Source: Nitrospirota bacterium (lineage in GTDB: Bacteria > Nitrospirota > UBA9217). From it: a DNA stretch of 64,000 nucleotides. The stretch covers positions 320,001 through 384,000 of the forward strand of contig CAVUCU010000001.1 in assembly GCA_963740085.1 (NCBI GenBank). The letters are read 5' to 3'. Made by a program: the position numbers and the translations under genes. The notes below the pieces were generated by a model. It saw nothing but the letters and a program-made list of their open reading frames with translations. It was not told where the DNA came from and did not search any database. Shown here piece after piece: positions 903 through 51,189 of the stretch. Positions within the stretch are counted from its first letter, which is position 1; every line of letters starts with the position of its first letter.

Positions 903-2588
903 ATGACATCAGCCGCCAAACAAACAGGCCGCCTCAATATGAGCGACCTCATTATCCTGACCGTCCTGATCTGCATTCTTTTTACTTTTATGCTCGGAAA
1001 CCGTCCCCTGTCAGTACCGGACGAAGGCAGGTATGTCGAGATCCCCCGGGAGATGGTGGCCTCGGGAAACTACCTTACCCCCCGCCTGAACTACGTTAAA
1101 TATTTTGAAAAACCTGTTTTTTTCTACTGGCTCGAGGCATTGTCGATCAAGCTGTTCGGACTGAATGAATTTACACTCCGGCTCTGGCCCGCGTTGTTCG
1201 GGCTCTTCGGATGTCTTGCCATTGCTGTTGCCGGAGCGCGCCTGTTCGGACGCAGGACCGGCCTGCTGAGTGGGGTGGTCCTTGCCACGAGCCTCCTGTA
1301 TTACGGACTGAGCCGGGCCATCATCCTCGATATGCCGGTTTCCATTCTGCTTACTCTGGCGCTCCTGTCTTTCCTTATAGGCACACACGAGGCCCCGGGG
1401 CTGAAGCGCCGGCTCTATTTGTGGGGTTTTTATACCTTTGCCGCGCTGGCGGTCCTGACCAAAGGCCTGATCGGCATTCTCATCCCCGGCATGGTGATCG
1501 GTGCCTGGATACTCCTTCTGGGTGAATGGCGAATGCTCAAGACGCTGTATATTCCATCGGGCCTTGCCTTGTTCCTGCTTATCGCCGCGCCCTGGCATAT
1601 CATGGTGGATATGGCCAACCCCGAGTTTTTTAAATTCTATTTCATCCATGAGCATTTTCAGCGCTTTCTGACCAGGGTACATGGCCGTTACAAGCCGTTC
1701 TGGTATTTCATACCCATCGTGTTGCTGGGGTTGTTTCCCTGGAGCGCCTTTCTGCTGCAGGCGATCAAGCACAGCGTCCCTTCGACCTGGCGGGAACGCC
1801 ATGAACACCGGGATGCGCTCTTTTTCCTGCTCTGGGCAGGGCTCGTATTTCTCTTTTTCTCGGCATCAAGCTCGAAGCTGGCGCCTTATATCCTGCCGGT
1901 TTTTCCGCCCCTCGCGCTTTTGATCGGTCGCTATCTTGCAGCGGCATGGGACAGCCGGGGTTTTCCCGGCCTCCGGGCAGGATACTCTGTCCTCCTGATC
2001 GCTTCACTGCTGCTTTCCGCGGCCTTCCTTGGCCTGCCGTACTACTGGCCGATATCCGCCGGGACGCAGCCGCTCGGTATATACCGGTATACCATCGCCC
2101 TCACACTGGCCATCGGCGGCGCCGCAGCGTGGGGACTGATGAGGAATCGTAATCTCCGGCGGGCCTTTATCGCCGTGGCCATGACCTCGGCGCTCTTTCT
2201 CACTCAGGTGAACGCAGCCGCGCCCCGTGTCGATATCAAGTCCGTCAAACAGCTTGCGATCGAGCTCAAGGCCCGTCTCAGACCCGGTGACGAAGTGGCC
2301 AGCTACCAGGAATACTATCAGGACCTCCCGGTATATCTTGAGCGGCGAATCACGGTGGTTGACTGGGGCGGCGAGCTCAATTTCGGCAATAGCGTGGAGG
2401 ATACCAGCGCGTGGATGATCGACGGCGCTACGTTCTGGAAACGCTGGCAGGGACCGACGACAATGTATATGCTGACCCCGATCGAGGACTACGAAACCCT
2501 GAAACGATCAAGGCCGGATCTTCCGTTGTTCCCGATAGACCGGAACAAGAGGACCATCCTGTTGTCCAATAGAGAGGTCAAGCCATGA
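903..2588 (+). CDS. arnT: Lipid A 4-amino-4-deoxy-L-arabinose transferase (GT83/PMT family)
   Basis: PDEGRY...YFEKP motifs, many TM helices, TKG and SKL..YILP motifs, first gene of the arn cluster. Start uncertain (849, 903 or 939). Confidence 0.9.
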   Translation: MTSAAKQTGRLNMSDLIILTVLICILFTFMLGNRPLSVPDEGRYVEIPREMVASGNYLTPRLNYVKYFEKPVFFYWLEALSIKLFGLNEFTLRLWPALFGLFGCLAIAVAGARLFGRRTGLLSGVVLATSLLYYGLSRAIILDMPVSILLTLALLSFLIGTHEAPGLKRRLYLWGFYTFAALAVLTKGLIGILIPGMVIGAWILLLGEWRMLKTLYIPSGLALFLLIAAPWHIMVDMANPEFFKFYFIHEHFQRFLTRVHGRYKPFWYFIPIVLLGLFPWSAFLLQAIKHSVPSTWRERHEHRDALFFLLWAGLVFLFFSASSSKLAPYILPVFPPLALLIGRYLAAAWDSRGFPGLRAGYSVLLIASLLLSAAFLGLPYYWPISAGTQPLGIYRYTIALTLAIGGAAAWGLMRNRNLRRAFIAVAMTSALFLTQVNAAAPRVDIKSVKQLAIELKARLRPGDEVASYQEYYQDLPVYLERRITVVDWGGELNFGNSVEDTSAWMIDGATFWKRWQGPTTMYMLTPIEDYETLKRSRPDLPLFPIDRNKRTILLSNREVKP

Positions 2589-2950
2589 GCTATTTCCCCC
2601 TGATCATGCTCGGCGTGCTGCTGAACGCTGCGGCGCAGTTGTTCCTCAAGGAGGGAATGCGCCGGATCGGCCACTTCGAGTTCGTCTGGGCAAATATCGT
2701 TCCCATCACCATTCAGGTGGCGGGAAACATTTTCGTGCTGGGGGGCCTGCTCTGCTATGTCATCAGCGTCGCGGTCTGGCTCCTGGTCCTGTCGCGTGTC
2801 GAGGTGAGCTTCGCCTATCCCCTTCTCTCCGTGGGATATATCGTGAATGCTGTGGCGGGCTACTACCTGTTCCAGGAAAATCTTTCGATGACACGCATCA
2901 CGGGGATACTGATCATTTGCGTGGGTGTATATTTTGTGACGAAGAGCTGA
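2585..2950 (+). CDS. Undecaprenyl-P-L-Ara4N flippase subunit (ArnE/F, EamA/SMR-like)
   Basis: Four-TM small protein with VEVSFAYP motif. ATGA overlap with arnT. Confidence 0.85.
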   Translation: MSYFPLIMLGVLLNAAAQLFLKEGMRRIGHFEFVWANIVPITIQVAGNIFVLGGLLCYVISVAVWLLVLSRVEVSFAYPLLSVGYIVNAVAGYYLFQENLSMTRITGILIICVGVYFVTKS

Positions 2951-2975
2951 GCAAGGGTCAGTTACCTTCAAATTG

Positions 2976-3443
2976 AACCGCGAAGACGCGAGGAACGCGA
3001 AGAAGGCGATTCATGCAATGGATATCGAAGAGATTGCTAGTAAAATTGCAAACAATGCCATTAAAGTGCATTCGGTCCTTGGCCCGGGTTTATTAGAATC
3101 GGCTTATCAGAAGTGTTTGGCATATGAATTAGGGAAAGATGGATGCAAGGTCGAATGCGAGGTTATGTTACCGGTCGTTTATGATGCAATTAATATTGAT
3201 GCAGGTTATCGAATAGATATGATCGTTGGAGGTTCAGTCCTCGTTGAGAATAAAACGGTCGAAGGTTTACTTCCGATTCATGAAGCACAATTATTGACTT
3301 ATCTTAAATTGAAAAACTGCAAAATAGGGTTTTTACTCAATTGGAATGTTACTCGTATGAAATATGGTATCAAAAGATGGTCAATAACTTATGAGTATTC
3401 AATGCAGTGTGTATGACCTTCGCGCTCTTCGCGCCTTCGCGGT
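2976..3443. mobile_element. GxxExxY gene cassette bounded by 26-bp imperfect inverted repeats
   Basis: Left arm accgcgaagacgcgaggaacgcgaag (2977-3002) matches the reverse complement of the right arm cttcgcgctcttcgcgccttcgcggt (3418-3443) at 23/26. The AT-rich cargo interrupts the arn operon. Confidence 0.7.
3018..3416 (+). CDS. GxxExxY protein (PD-(D/E)XK nuclease-like)
   Basis: LGPGLLESAY signature, YRIDMIV..VENK and HEAQLLTYLK motifs. Likely start is ATG 3018. A probable 1-nt deletion near 3377 replaces a GIKRMVNNL* end with WSITYEYSMQCV. Confidence 0.9.
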   Translation: MDIEEIASKIANNAIKVHSVLGPGLLESAYQKCLAYELGKDGCKVECEVMLPVVYDAINIDAGYRIDMIVGGSVLVENKTVEGLLPIHEAQLLTYLKLKNCKIGFLLNWNVTRMKYGIKRWSITYEYSMQCV

Positions 3444-3486
3444 ATAATGTTTTTACTGTTACGATCTCGACGTTTCAAGAGGACTT

Positions 3487-4653
3487 ATGTCAGATAATAA
3501 AGATCAAGAATTTCTCCCCTTCTCCCGGCCGTCCATCAGCCAGGCAGCCATAGATGAAGTCGTGGCGTGCCTGAAGTCGGGTTGGATCACGACCGGCCCC
3601 CGGGTCAGGCAGTTCGAGGAGGATCTGAAAACGTACCTTGGCGCACCGCACGTTCTTGCCCTTACCTCGGCAACGGCAGGCCTGCATCTCGCGCTCGTCG
3701 CGCTTAACCTGAAGCCCGGCGACGAGGTGATCACCACTCCCATGACCTTTGCGGCGACCCTGAACACCATCGTGCTCGCCGGCGGCAGGCCGGTGCTCGT
3801 CGATGTAGAGCCCGGCACCTACAACATGGACGTGACAAAGATCGAGAAGGCCGTTACGAAGCGCTCACGCGCCATCATGCCCGTGCACTTTGCGGGACTG
3901 CCCGTTGATCTCGATCCACTGTACGACATCGCGAAAAAGCACAACCTGAGGGTGATCGAGGACGCAGCGCACGCCATCGGAACGGAGTATAAGGGCAGGC
4001 GAATCGGCAGCTTTGGCGATGTCCAGGTCTTCAGCTTTCATCCCAACAAGAACATGACCACCGGAGAAGGCGGGTGCGTAGCAACCCGGGACGAGAAGCT
4101 TGCCTCGGACATAGCGCTTCTTCGATTCCACGGCATGGACCGCGAGGCATGGAACCGCTTCGGCAAGAAAGGCAACCAGCACTACGAGATCATAATGCCC
4201 GGATACAAGTACAACATGATGGATATGCAGGCCGCGCTCGGCCTGCATCAGTTAAAGCGGCTCGACGGATTCATTAAGCGGCGCGCCGAGATCGCCCTGC
4301 GCTATCAGAGGGTCCTCGCAGAGTGGCCGCAGTGGACGCTTACCAAAGCGCCGGCGTATCAGCATCTTAACGCCTGGCACCTCTACGCGCCGCTCATCAA
4401 CCCCGAAGCCGCGAAGATGGACCGCGACGCCTTTATGCAGGGCATGAAGGAGCGCAATATCGGTACCGGCCTGCACTACCGGGCCGTGCATCTCTATCCC
4501 TACTACCGTGATCAGTTCGGGTTCAAGCGCGGAGATTTTCCGAATGCCGAAACCATTTCGGACCGCATCGTGAGCCTGCCCCTTTTCCCGCTCATGACCG
4601 ACGCGGACCAGGACCGGGTGATCGCGGCCATGAAGGACCTGTTTCATCGATAG
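3487..4653 (+). CDS. arnB: UDP-4-amino-4-deoxy-L-arabinose aminotransferase (DegT/DnrJ family)
   Basis: SGWITTGP, IEDAAHA and FSFHPNKNMTTGEGG PLP motifs. Arn context. Confidence 0.92.
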   Translation: MSDNKDQEFLPFSRPSISQAAIDEVVACLKSGWITTGPRVRQFEEDLKTYLGAPHVLALTSATAGLHLALVALNLKPGDEVITTPMTFAATLNTIVLAGGRPVLVDVEPGTYNMDVTKIEKAVTKRSRAIMPVHFAGLPVDLDPLYDIAKKHNLRVIEDAAHAIGTEYKGRRIGSFGDVQVFSFHPNKNMTTGEGGCVATRDEKLASDIALLRFHGMDREAWNRFGKKGNQHYEIIMPGYKYNMMDMQAALGLHQLKRLDGFIKRRAEIALRYQRVLAEWPQWTLTKAPAYQHLNAWHLYAPLINPEAAKMDRDAFMQGMKERNIGTGLHYRAVHLYPYYRDQFGFKRGDFPNAETISDRIVSLPLFPLMTDADQDRVIAAMKDLFHR

Positions 4654-7892: not shown

Positions 7893-7934
7893 GCGTCCCC
7901 CCCACTGAGCCGTAAAGTCAGGCTAATACATTTA

Positions 7935-8132
7935 AACCGCGAAGACGCAAAGAGCGCGAAGGTTTAAGTACATATCGATGAACGCGCAACAAGTCGAATG
8001 TAACCGCAGAGACGCTGAGGCGCAGAGAAAATCCTTCCGTGTCTCAACGCCTCCGCAGTAGATCAGGTTTTTTACGAGATCACCAGATTAGAGTCTGATG
8101 TTTATTCTTCGCGTCCTTCGCGACTTAGCGGT
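7935..8132. repeat. Nested inverted-repeat elements (outer cgcgaag arms, inner cgcagag arms at 8002-8060)
   Basis: Outer arms 7935-7962 and 8107-8132 resemble the GxxExxY cassette ends. Inner arms are 8002-8027 and 8035-8060. Confidence 0.75.
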
Positions 8133-24230: not shown

Positions 24231-26006
24231 CTACATCCTCTTGAACATCTTCATGATCTCGGTCATCGTAAATCGAACGATCGTCGGCCTCCCGTGCGGA
24301 CAGGTATGCGGCATGCGGCATTTGAACAGGTCCGCAAGGAGCATTTCCATCTCCTGCCGGTCGAGATGACGATGAACCTTGATCGCGGGATGGCAGGCCA
24401 TCACACTCAGCATTGCATCCCGTACCTCATCCATTCTCCCGCTCTTGCCATGGACATTCACTTCATCGAGGATATCGAGAAGCAACTGCTTGATGTCGGC
24501 TCCGACCAGCAGCGCCGGTACCGCCTTGATCACGAACGTGCCATTCCCGAAATCCTCCACCAGAAAACCGAGTTTGGAAAGTTCCGGCAGATATTCAGCA
24601 AGCACCGTGCTCTGTGCCGGCCCGAGCTCAACCTGGTCCGGCACCAGGAGCCCCTGGACAGCAACGTGTCCGGCTTTGAACTGGTCCTGCAGCCTTTCGA
24701 AAAGCACCCGCTCGTGCGCCGCATGCTGATCAATGAGCGCCATCCCCTCCCGTGACTGGGCAACGATGAACGAGTCGTGGATCTGTGCGAGAGGGTGGAG
24801 AAGTTCGGAGTTCAGAGTTGGGAGTTCGGAGTATGAAGCGAAGGAAACGGGAGCAGTGGAATATTCCAATTCCCGGTTCTGCGCTTGTTCGGCAGATTTT
24901 GGAACAGCATTCCTGGTGTCCCAACTCCGGACTCCGAACTCCGAACTTTTTACATTGCTCAGGTAATCCGACAAACTTTCTCTCACCCCATCAGCATGCG
25001 TCGTCGCAGAAGAAGTATTCACCCCCCGCAAAGCCTCCCGGAGCACGTCCCGGACCAGGTCATGCAATTGCGATTGATTTCGGAAGCGGACCTCGGCCTT
25101 GGCTGGATGGACATTTACATCCACGAGCGTTGGATCGATCTCGATAAAGATGAAAGCCACAGGGTGCCGGCCGCGCATAAGCATGTCACCGCAGGCACTG
25201 TAGAGCGCGTGCGTGAGCGACGGGTTCTTGACCGCGCGACGGTTCACGAAGAATTCCTGGTATGTTTTGTCCGCCCGGCTCGTTCCGGGACGGCCGATGA
25301 GGCCTTTGACATGAACGTCCGTGCCACCGGCGAACTCGATCAGGTTTCCGGCTATTTCTTCACCGTAAAGCTGGAGCGCCCGTTCCCGGACGCTCACGGA
25401 GGGAGAAAGTTCGAGCACCGTTTTTTTGTTATGCGTAAGTCTGAAACGGACGGAAGGCTGCGCCATTGCCTGGCGAGATACCGCGGTCAGGATATGTGAG
25501 AACTCGGTCGCCGGGCTCTTCAGGAACTTGCGTCTCGCCGGAGTATTGAAAAACAGATGGCTGATCTCCAGGGAGGTACCCTGCGGCGCAGCAGCTTCGG
25601 ACACGGTCTTGACGATACCGCCCTCGATCTCGATCAGCGCACCAGACGTCGCGTCCTTCATCGCGCTCTGCAGCCGTACGTGGGACACCGAGGCAATGCT
25701 GGAGAGGGCCTCTCCCCGAAAGCCCATGGTACGAATGGATTCCAGGTCGGTATCGCTGGTTATCTTGCTCGTGGCGTGGCGCAGGAATGCGGTCCGGGCG
25801 TCCTCGTTCGACATGCCGCTGCCGTTGTCCGTAATGCGGATGAGCCGCTTGCCGGCCTCTTCGATGTCGATGAATATTTGGGTCGCCCCTGCGTCGATCG
25901 AGTTCTCGATAAGTTCCTTTACCACGGACGCGGGCCGCTCCACCACCTCGCCCGCGGCGATCTTATTGATGACATGGTCAGGGAGAATTTTGATTAGGGA
26001 GGACAT
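24231..26006 (-). CDS. mutL: DNA mismatch repair endonuclease MutL
   Basis: IAAGEVVERPASVVKEL, GFRGEAL, DQHAAHER and CPHGRP motifs. Confidence 0.97.
   Translation of the reverse strand: MSSLIKILPDHVINKIAAGEVVERPASVVKELIENSIDAGATQIFIDIEEAGKRLIRITDNGSGMSNEDARTAFLRHATSKITSDTDLESIRTMGFRGEALSSIASVSHVRLQSAMKDATSGALIEIEGGIVKTVSEAAAPQGTSLEISHLFFNTPARRKFLKSPATEFSHILTAVSRQAMAQPSVRFRLTHNKKTVLELSPSVSVRERALQLYGEEIAGNLIEFAGGTDVHVKGLIGRPGTSRADKTYQEFFVNRRAVKNPSLTHALYSACGDMLMRGRHPVAFIFIEIDPTLVDVNVHPAKAEVRFRNQSQLHDLVRDVLREALRGVNTSSATTHADGVRESLSDYLSNVKSSEFGVRSWDTRNAVPKSAEQAQNRELEYSTAPVSFASYSELPTLNSELLHPLAQIHDSFIVAQSREGMALIDQHAAHERVLFERLQDQFKAGHVAVQGLLVPDQVELGPAQSTVLAEYLPELSKLGFLVEDFGNGTFVIKAVPALLVGADIKQLLLDILDEVNVHGKSGRMDEVRDAMLSVMACHPAIKVHRHLDRQEMEMLLADLFKCRMPHTCPHGRPTIVRFTMTEIMKMFKRM
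24802..24947. repeat. Inverted heptamer arrays inside the mutL linker
   Basis: (gagttcg)n at 24802-24832 faces (aactccg)n at 24922-24947. The frame is preserved. Confidence 0.8.
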
Positions 26007-44180: not shown

Positions 44181-44214
44181 ATTATTTGACTATCATGAAA
44201 AGTAACTACTCGGA

Positions 44215-44353
44215 TTGGCCGCAAAAGAACGCAAAGATCTCAAAGAAAAAACCTGCAACCATGTATTTTGTTTTAATTCTCTCTGCGATCCTTGCGTTCT
44301 TTTTCGCGGCTAACAGCTTTTTACCTGAATTTATCCGTGTCCATCCGTGGTTA
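44215..44353. repeat. Paired inverted-repeat element plus an orphan cacggat-type arm
   Basis: ttggccgcaaaagaacgcaaaga / tctctgcgatccttgcgttctttttcgcggctaa, then atccgtgtccatccgtggtta. Confidence 0.75.
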
Positions 44354-50272: not shown

Positions 50273-51189
50273 TGGGGTCAAGTCTTGAAATATAAGAATA
50301 AGTATGCTATTGTGTTTCCATGGCTCGACCGCTAAGAATAGAATATCCAAATGCCGTCTATCATGTCACCTCCCGAGGGAATGCGCGGAACAATATATTT
50401 CTGAGCGACCAAGACCGGGAGAATTTTCTCCTTGTTCTTGGCGCCGTCGTCAAGAGGTTCCACTGGTTCTGCCATGCCTGCTGCCTCATGGACAATCATT
50501 ACCATCTTATGATAGAAACCCCCGATGCCAATCTTTCCCGAGGGATGCGTCAGCTTAATGGCGTTTATACGCAGAAATACAATTGGTGGCACAGCAAAAC
50601 CGGTCACATATTCCAAGGACGATATAAATCGATTTTGGTTGAAAAAGAAAACTATCTCTTAGAACTGTGCCGCTATGTGGTTTTGAATCCAGTGCGGGCA
50701 AATATGGTTGAAAAGCCGGATGCATGGAAATGGAGCAGCTACGAAGCGACTGCTGGTTTAAAGTCCGTCCCTGATTATCTGACCGTTGGCTGGATTCTGC
50801 GGCTGTTCAGTAGCAACAAAAAAGAGGCACAGAGACGATATCGCACATTTGTGAGTGAGGGAATACAGGCGGGCTCGCCATGGGGTGATCTGCAGGGTCA
50901 GATACTCCTGGGCGAAGAGGGATTTATAGACAAGTTCAAGGATCATTTAACGGACAAGGAGAAAATTAAAGAAATCCCGCGAGCGCAACGCTATGTGAGC
51001 CGGCCACCATTGTCAAAACTTTTCTCGGCAAACGAAAAAATCTCCATGAGAAACAAACATATTTCCACTGCTCTTGTTAAATATGGCTATACGCTGAAAG
51101 AGATTGCAGACCATCTCGATATCCACTATACTACGGTCAGCAAGGCGATGAAGGTTAGGTGAATAGTGATAATTCAAGACCTGACCCCA
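50273..51189. mobile_element. RAYT cassette bounded by 17-bp inverted repeats
   Basis: tggggtcaagtcttgaa (50273-50289) and ttcaagacctgacccca (51173-51189), 16/17 match. Confidence 0.8.
50320..51162 (+). CDS. REP-associated tyrosine (HUH/Y1) transposase with C-terminal HTH
   Basis: YHVTSRGN, CLM.NHYH (HUH), GHIFQGRYKS, NPVRA, WSSY catalytic Tyr and EIA.HL.IHY.TVS HTH. Confidence 0.9.
   Translation: MARPLRIEYPNAVYHVTSRGNARNNIFLSDQDRENFLLVLGAVVKRFHWFCHACCLMDNHYHLMIETPDANLSRGMRQLNGVYTQKYNWWHSKTGHIFQGRYKSILVEKENYLLELCRYVVLNPVRANMVEKPDAWKWSSYEATAGLKSVPDYLTVGWILRLFSSNKKEAQRRYRTFVSEGIQAGSPWGDLQGQILLGEEGFIDKFKDHLTDKEKIKEIPRAQRYVSRPPLSKLFSANEKISMRNKHISTALVKYGYTLKEIADHLDIHYTTVSKAMKVR

Follow-up and report, generated by a model that had tools for sequence, protein, structure and literature searches.

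The 64,000-nucleotide stretch of DNA analysed here (the window; positions 320,001 to 384,000 of contig CAVUCU010000001.1, Nitrospirota bacterium assembly GCA_963740085.1) carries, between two genes of an arn-type cluster, a small cassette in which a single AT-rich open reading frame (ORF) of the GxxExxY nuclease-like family is enclosed by inverted arms built of tandem heptamers. Our preferred reading, to which we give about even prospects of being correct, is drawn by analogy: the cassette would be a promoterless selfish element of a widespread palindromic superfamily that also includes the ORF-carrying intervening sequences (IVS) of 23S rRNA, expressed by read-through, folded into a stem in the transcript and cleaved there by RNase III.

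The ORF lies on the forward strand at 3018..3416 and encodes 132 aa. Its full frame runs from 2973 to 3416 with a TTG start, and the in-frame ATG at 3018 is the likely start codon. The left arm (2977..3002, forward strand) consists of CGCGAAG (2979-2985), CGCGAGG (2987-2993) and CGCGAAG (2996-3002), with AC in front; the right arm (3418..3443, forward strand) begins 1 base past the stop codon, reads CTTCGCG at 3418, 3427 and 3435, and terminates in GGT. Each arm therefore holds three CGCGAAG-type heptamers, spaced by 1-2 nt. A genome-wide inverted-repeat scan (arms of at least 22 nt, at least 80% match) returned the 26-nt core 2977-3002 / 3418-3443, whose arms stand 415 nt apart and are complementary at 23 of 26 positions; a repeat search gave a longer call of 31 nt at 2972-3002 / 3418-3448 (84% complementary). 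Under a +1/-2 scheme the arms score 17 (hand arithmetic), against a best of 14 in 419 shifted control placements at other loci. The arm duplex has a predicted energy of -44.7 kcal/mol, compared with -19.4 +/- 3.8 in 300 shuffles, the best of which reached -41.6, and the two arms pair with one another in both the minimum free energy and the centroid RNA fold. With arms of 26-31 nt, the stem around the element spans the two to three helical turns by which an IVS is recognized.

In composition the cassette stands apart from its surroundings, with a GC content of 0.37-0.40 over 3001-3450 versus 0.54-0.63 on both sides, and of 0.368 in the ORF versus 0.543 in the genome. AT-richness is shared by all twelve ORFs of this kind that were measured in the genome, those of the GxxExxY family (0.34-0.47) as well as those of the four-helix-bundle type described below (0.37-0.44). 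No direct repeat or target-site duplication could be read between the flanks (...caaattga / ataatgtt...), and Rfam gave 0 matches at E 1 or better over 2800-3600. An initial annotation of the window, made from its letters, had described an AT-rich GxxExxY ORF within 26-bp arms of three cgcgaag-type units matching at 23 of 26 positions, with no visible target-site duplication; this description holds.

The same annotation had called the product a predicted PD-(D/E)XK-fold nuclease, and profile scores, conserved residues and a structural model agree. The protein matches TIGR04256 (GxxExxY) at 131.2 bits against a cut-off of 35, over residues 6-120 of 132, and PF13366 (PDDEXK_3), its sole Pfam match, at E 1.2e-36 and 126 bits against 22. 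The motif G24-L-L-E27-S-A-Y30 and residues D67, E77, K79, Q91 and Y95 are invariant in an alignment of 80 sequences. E27, D67, E77 and K79, together with Q91 and Y95, are the putative catalytic residues; we take Q91 and Y95 to be the QxxxY motif of the RecB family, and the pattern as a whole is presumably that of RecB/Cas4-type nucleases. An AlphaFold model (mean predicted local distance difference test score 93.4) has the alpha-beta-beta-beta-alpha-beta core of the PD-(D/E)XK fold, and its best matches were Cas4 SSO0001 (E 1.9e-3), Hjc and AdnAB with Foldseek, and the restriction-endonuclease-like 3ijm and Cas4 4ic1 (both Z 7.8) with VIA. A PDB sequence search returned no solved relative and tblastn no phage match. 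The accessible text of a survey of PD-(D/E)XK proteins enters PF13366 as 'Unknown' (PMC3424549). When another cassette of this genome, at C1:300668, was compared with its counterpart in relative G006, the ratio of nonsynonymous to synonymous substitution rates (dN/dS) was 0.10 at a dS of 0.99, and both arms had 0 changes in their units while the spacers had changed. These substitution patterns indicate that the GxxExxY ORF is a working protein under purifying selection.

Arms of this build are not peculiar to one locus. We sampled 80 GxxExxY loci from many phyla and one archaeon, 79 of which had enough flanking sequence for scoring. Inverted repeats scoring at least 14 flanked 43 of the 79, as opposed to 1 of 419 shifted controls, so the expectation that GxxExxY genes across taxa would be enriched for unit-built inverted repeats was confirmed. 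When the flanks were widened and mismatches penalised less heavily, a score of at least 13 was reached at 66 of the 85 loci (this genome's own included), and 100 shuffles scored in the same way reached at most 12.5. This genome has six GxxExxY genes; by eye all six have unit arms, of differing sequence, and four pass the automatic score. The six proteins are only 28-47% identical to one another, so the cassettes have not multiplied recently within this genome. Two of them, at C1:1-1400 and C1:1186000-1186800, lie in locally duplicated flanks in which hairpin segments of about 100 nt are repeated on both sides, resembling short tandem arrays of the non-coding part.

Comparison among cassettes reveals what is kept in the arms. 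Their median length is 30 nt, and the common layout is AC-[CRCRRAG plus 1-3 nt] x three, with AC preceding the first unit in 31 of 50. Taken over 50 cassettes, mismatches between left and right arm affect 9% of unit positions versus 41% of spacer positions, a comparison in which the unit mask, being defined by the motif, somewhat favours low unit mismatch. Conservation of the units far past neutral expectation, while the spacers drift, suggests that some protein reads the 7-nt units, the likeliest candidate being the one that the cassette encodes. On the protein tree, loci with like units cluster together (47 changes of unit type versus 54.6 in shuffles); this is no proof of recognition, because arms and gene are linked and the hosts differ in GC content.

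The arms also hug the gene. The median distance from the upstream arm to the start of the family match is 22.5 nt, and from the end of the match to the downstream arm 26 nt. The upstream neighbour is co-directional at 65 of 75 loci, compared with 72% of 192 control pairs (p 0.003). On the evidence of this tight fit and of the upstream co-orientation, GxxExxY cassettes appear to be promoterless.

A second gene family is packaged in the same way. Genes for the four-helix-bundle protein of 23S rRNA IVS lie within tandem-unit arms at all 20 loci sampled from other families (seven genomes), with 0 of 100 shuffles positive in the control, and the units of the sampled loci are very diverse. Among the eight such loci of this genome, six are armed by score and the remaining two have unit arrays by eye. 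At C4:482560-483420 a four-helix-bundle gene in CTAAAGTG-unit arms is interrupted, at about 482827-483109, by an ORF of about 85 aa that by eye resembles a small GIY-YIG nuclease, a selfish element nested in another. A broken four-helix-bundle gene at C4:88036-88478 is flanked by units of the AGTTCGG type, and arms of the same heptamer type (30 nt, 26 matches, 88-nt loop) form a large hairpin at 24801-24948 of the window.

The closest precedent for the cassette is the 23S rRNA IVS, rather than the repetitive extragenic palindromic (REP) sequences and their associated tyrosine transposases (RAYT). In the account of the Coxiella IVS available to us, an element of 428-444 nt is closed by a terminal stem of 28 bp, its S23p ORF is preceded by three heptamers in tandem, and RNase III excises it by cutting inside the stem (PMC4990558); for IVS whose stems are made of tandem heptamers, this excision has thus been shown elsewhere. 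Likenesses extend to the IVS of Coxiella, Leptospira and others, which according to the same partial text measure about 430-500 nt, end in inverted repeats that form a stem of about 28 bp, have three 7-nt units in tandem immediately ahead of an ORF encoding about 120 aa, lack a promoter, are sporadically distributed and show decay of the ORF (PMC4990558); and genes of the IVS family occur in such arms in this very genome. The two differ in that the cassette lies between protein-coding genes and encodes a PF13366 nuclease, whereas IVS occupy helix 25 or 45 of 23S rRNA and encode S23p, and in that cleavage by RNase III is known for IVS. A further source, in the passage available, describes the IVS protein as functionally uncharacterised (PMC11270868).

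From the arms hugging the ORF, the co-orientation of upstream genes and an RNA fold that pairs the arms, we take read-through, stem formation and RNase III cleavage to be the most likely course of events. The unit of inheritance and transfer would be arm, small ORF, arm. In it a minimal RecB/Cas4-like PD-(D/E)XK nuclease would take the place of the four-helix-bundle (S23p) protein, and an intergenic gap of an mRNA operon the place of the rRNA helix. Transcription would come by read-through from the upstream arn genes, and in the transcript the paired arms would form about 26-31 bp of stem. On the model of the IVS, RNase III would then cut this stem, releasing the nuclease mRNA and parting the upstream from the downstream arn messages, so that the insertion could be tolerated. 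The nuclease would be the element's own protein, one that probably reads the arm units and may have a role in spread. Observed here are the architecture, how general it is, which relatives have or lack it, the selection acting on ORF and units, and the co-orientation of upstream genes.

Several results weigh against this interpretation. No arms were detectable at 19 of the 85 GxxExxY loci. Spacer mismatches cut the stem into 7-bp blocks, and a stem so divided may be a poor substrate for RNase III. Arm mismatches comprise 65 G.U and 87 A.C on the sense strand, with no bias towards wobble pairs, and so give no evidence of selection on an RNA stem; unit conservation would be explained equally well if the arms acted at the DNA level. 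The RNA fold of the whole region is unremarkable (z -1.76), and none of the RNA runs contains the locus. As for the kinship with IVS, it is an analogy resting on shared build and on the four-helix-bundle cassettes: no match to Rfam at gathering score or to rRNA was found in the 20 GxxExxY loci scanned, none of which lies in rRNA, and the genome's own 23S gene (3002 nt, against a model of 2925 positions) has no unit hairpin insert. The fold searches contain no match that points to one enzyme or substrate (best Z 7.8). Finally, over about 100 kb around the window, genomes with genes about 92% identical bear unrelated palindromic elements at the same intergenic positions, and no target duplication or empty site pointing to a mechanism of cassette movement was found among the relatives compared.

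A different role for the nuclease was proposed in the initial annotation, which took the cassette for the autonomous member of a REP/MITE-like system (MITE, miniature inverted-repeat transposable element) mobilised or maintained by the enzyme. In this alternative, which we consider unlikely, the nuclease is a counterpart of RAYT that recognises unit hairpins and spreads or maintains copies without an ORF, the present cassette being the master. The genome does hold a population of such hairpins. The inverted-repeat scan found 120 pairs, 44 of them distinct with loops of at most 160 nt; these short hairpins mostly consist of units 7-9 nt long, a typical arm measuring about 26 nt and a typical loop about 45 nt. 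Triple CRCRRAG arms occur 104 times versus 0 for the reversed pattern, many of them on ORF-less hairpins, and at least one multi-copy MITE family is present. Arms like this cassette's recur at about 10 sites and arms like those of the C1:300668 cassette at about 24, but these are the only two of the genome's six GxxExxY cassettes with a sizeable population of look-alikes, the other four having few or none elsewhere. The system is REP/MITE-like as far as the recurrence of arm families on ORF-less hairpins goes, and less so for most of the cassettes. Units that are kept while spacers drift are what recognition by a protein would predict, and the ORF is under purifying selection. Yet the four-helix-bundle cassettes have the same build and no nuclease, the ORF-less hairpins contain no remnant of a GxxExxY or four-helix-bundle gene at E 0.001 or better, their loops are by eye unlike the inner flanks of the cassette, and no target duplication is visible.

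Counts across genomes bear on the same proposal. In a survey of 41 genomes, which as close kin offer a pattern and not a test, GxxExxY genes were present in 23 and four-helix-bundle genes in 27. Triple arms numbered 7-124 in 22 of the 23 GxxExxY-bearing genomes, and among the 11 genomes with neither family they numbered 0 in six, 1 in three, 4 in G039 and 26 in G024, so that nine of these 11 had 0-1. Against this, G024 (26), G029 (22) and G038 (125, control 54) have arms without any GxxExxY gene, and the counts are confounded by kinship, nearly all positives coming from one family.

Known REP and REPIN (REP doublet forming a hairpin) systems with RAYT resemble the cassette in having a single gene between inverted copies of a repeat that is also dispersed as short intergenic palindromes. 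They differ in the enzyme, RAYT being a Y1 HUH transposase and not a PD-(D/E)XK protein, and in the repeat, which is a single palindrome in REP whereas cassette arms are tandem 7-9 nt units with many unit families coexisting.

The handedness of the hairpins is independent of strand. A purine-rich array stands 5' in 58 of 60 CRCRRAG hairpins and 37 of 44 short hairpins of this genome; among gene-carrying elements it does so in 55 of 66 cassettes of the GxxExxY type and at 16 of 20 four-helix-bundle loci. Purine content is the better measure of this chirality, G-minus-C skew being a poor one.

The site itself was examined in 40 relatives searched by DNA, 14 of which have both flanking genes side by side. 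None of these 14 carries an ORF at the flippase-arnB junction, where their gaps measure 32-190 nt. By eye, seven gaps contain a complete two-armed hairpin of other units (CACGGAT, GTCTCAAAG, CGCCAAGG, CGCAGAG and CACGAAG), another contains a hairpin that is imperfect, a lone arm or a fragment is left in three, and the last three show no such structure; the hairpins of G003 and G008 are clearly homologous to each other, and G009 has a lone right arm resembling this cassette's. Metagenome contigs from four runs of two studies span the occupied site across both of its junctions, and one of these contigs is from a strain that has diverged by a few percent. A metagenome join of 3004 to 3420 (run X5, one side of just 24 letters) most likely comes from an ORF-less hairpin elsewhere and was left unused. 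The observations support gene plus arms as an added unit at the junction. Its insertion into the arn operon, asserted in the initial annotation, is upheld, and a relative that has the gene here without arms, which would have spoken for an ancestral component of the cluster, was not seen. The suggested comparison with empty arn sites does not work in its simple form: the gene is absent from all 14, but most sites are occupied by other hairpins and none is cleanly empty.

Such replacement is not confined to the junction. Where this genome has another GxxExxY cassette, at C1:300619-301087, G003 has a CACGGAG hairpin with no ORF, and because unrelated elements stand at the same intergenic sites, clean empty sites and target duplications are not definable. 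Between C1:268000-372000 and relatives G001, G003, G004, G005 and G006, intergenic gaps are replaced wholesale between genes that are about 85-93% identical, and the replaced gaps also hold other palindromic repeats, of the GTCATTCCCGCGAAAGCGGGAATC type and the CCCTCACCCC...GGGGAGAGG type.

It could be, although we think it improbable, that the hairpins are primary, as MITE-like elements or host RNA structures, that their loops serve as landing sites, and that the nuclease is cargo with a cellular job unrelated to the arms. The relatives' other hairpins at the flippase-arnB junction itself would fit, as would the presence of some hairpin in almost every gap between genes of the arn cluster. 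A family of MITE-like elements about 150 nt long is present in at least 14 copies with conserved loops and long terminal inverted repeats (CTACTCAGGTCAAAATCT-GTTAGCCGCGAAAGAACGCAAGG...), one of them at about 44200-44335 of the window; a copy is nested in the loop of another hairpin at C4:513405-513610, and similar nesting occurs at a site in G006. Inverted pairs of heptamer repeats without an ORF are also common in Xanthomonas, going by the portion of that report at hand (PMC4692102). The case is countered by the way arms and gene stay together through transfer, related cassettes at different loci and in different phyla retaining the same units, and by arms that hug the ORF so closely that there is no room for separate gene ends. 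For a cellular job, moreover, PADLOC offered no defence-system match to the protein. As a separate observation, G006 has copies of the 150-nt family at sites that are empty of them in this genome.

Cassettes keep their arms when they change place. Copies with 69-71% identical DNA, arms included, are found at other loci in G008 and G018; one such copy separates two genes that in this genome are direct neighbours, with a tandem array of ATCACAA in the gap instead. The three closest copies, all in G008 and G018, are broken by frameshifts or stops, as are many copies in relatives, and ORF decay of this kind is typical of selfish genes. On a tree of the 80 proteins, the window's protein has as its closest clade (support 100/97) a locus from Desulfobacteraceae and three from Chloroflexota. 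CGCGAAG arms pass the score at two of the latter, and the third has a CGCGAAG unit pair below threshold; no arms were detected at the Desulfobacteraceae locus (L040).

Two of the related copies, in G008 and G018, lie in or beside a tyrosine recombinase remnant, which raises the question of an integron-like cassette whose arms are a folded recombination site for such an enzyme. A promoterless ORF of cassette size, and arms that vary in sequence and not in build, as attC sites do, would agree with this. Integron cassettes likewise are promoterless single ORFs with a structured, sequence-variable repeat and read-through expression. The core sites of attC are RYYYAAC...GTTRRRY. Here, however, the arms are symmetric around the ORF and do not make up a single site 3' of it; the terminal sequences are ACC...GGT, and in one family GTTAGCC...GGCTAAC, the reverse of the attC core arrangement; no integrase or cassette array appears in the ORF list of the locus; and the recombinase gene of G018 is itself interrupted by the cassette. 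We regard this explanation as very improbable. The G018 gene (G018:C7, locus L119, 2401-3683) is split by a GxxExxY cassette between the N-terminal and C-terminal catalytic parts of the recombinase, and at G008:C3 (L117) a GxxExxY cassette adjoins the same C-terminal remnant.

Other mobile elements offer partial likenesses to the cassette that we read as an IVS-like selfish element. Homing endonuclease genes share the small nuclease ORF, patchiness among kin, cross-phylum transfer and frequent pseudogenes, and they too have an RNA-level device that makes the insertion harmless, splicing in their case and the proposed stem in ours; the cassette differs in having no self-splicing RNA match in Rfam, no cognate empty target site that could be found and no sign of recent multiplication within the genome. 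Insertion sequences and MITEs moved by DDE-type transposition differ from it in that its ends have no target-site duplication, and no transposase-like partner for the cassette was found. Inverted heptamer repeats (GGGAATC of Xanthomonas; the short tandemly repeated repetitive, or STRR, sequences of cyanobacteria) are intergenic, consist of 7-nt units in convergent stem-loop pairs, vary between close species and have an unexplained function; they differ in that the accessible part of the report describes no enclosed gene and no link to GxxExxY or four-helix-bundle families (PMC4692102). Multicopy palindromic and direct repeats are also mentioned in the part at hand of the Geobacter bemidjiensis genome paper (PMC2996986).

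A broader generalization is tentative, and we think it somewhat unlikely: GxxExxY and four-helix-bundle (S23p/Avd-like) genes might be the two coding modules of a single class of mobile element, so far unrecognised and spread throughout the bacteria. Its ends would be arrays of 7-9 nt units, the purine-rich array always 5', and it would settle in hairpin loops and intergenic gaps of transcribed DNA, rRNA helices included. Removal by RNase III at the RNA level would make it a protein-independent counterpart of an intron, and the heptamer-repeat palindromes of Xanthomonas, cyanobacteria and Geobacter-type genomes could be what it leaves behind. The encoded oligomeric protein would read the tandem units, perhaps as ring proteins read spaced repeats, and this binding would drive copying or retention of the element.

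The wider interest lies in what the common packaging joins. GxxExxY and the 23S rRNA IVS (four-helix-bundle) proteins are two abundant small families of unknown function; IVS elements have been without explanation since about 1990, and the tandem heptamer palindromes catalogued in several genomes also lack one. A literature search that covered subscription journals thinly found no link between GxxExxY and such arms, although curated family descriptions or the PDF supplements of Geobacter papers may note one; GxxExxY was mentioned only in passing, and the family accession numbers were not found in the paper texts searched.

The host locus is a co-directional cluster that also encodes ArnT-, ArnC-, ArnA- and ArnD-like proteins, Arn names being used here for similarity below NCBIfam equivalog cut-offs. 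Upstream of the cassette, at 2585..2950 on the forward strand, is a gene for a small membrane protein of the small multidrug resistance (SMR)/EamA type, ArnE/ArnF-like and resembling a flippase subunit (EamA and Multi_Drug_Res matches; ArnF model 64 bits, cut-off 99). Downstream, at 3487..4653 on the same strand, is an ArnB-like DegT/DnrJ/EryC1 aminotransferase (E 1.9e-134; ArnB model 441.5 bits, cut-off 631). The placement between a flippase-like and an arnB-like gene given in the initial annotation is accordingly correct, at that level of similarity. By its position the cassette would split the transcript of a lipid A modification operon of the polymyxin-resistance (aminoarabinose) type and may alter its expression.

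A solo arm of the CGCGAAG family (7935..7963, forward strand) lies in the next-but-two intergenic gap of the cluster (7893-8097), between the ArnA-dehydrogenase-like and ArnD-like genes, followed by a small CGCAGAG-type hairpin at about 8001-8063. Next to the orthologous arnA gene of G018 stands a GxxExxY cassette, now broken, whose arms are of the CGCGAAG type. Together, the solo arm and the G018 cassette suggest that the CGCGAAG family may be old in the arn cluster, with its position shifted.

Elsewhere in the window, at 50320-51162, is a 280-aa Y1_Tnp (IS200/RAYT-like) ORF flanked by a 21-nt inverted repeat, TGGGGTCAAGTC... (50273-51189). A RAYT link to the cassette arms was considered on this account and rejected, the Y1_Tnp genes of the genome carrying a different inverted repeat. 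Repeats related to that of Y1_Tnp flank two shorter copies, at C5:69666-70429 and C6:13089-13852, and are distinct from the unit hairpins.

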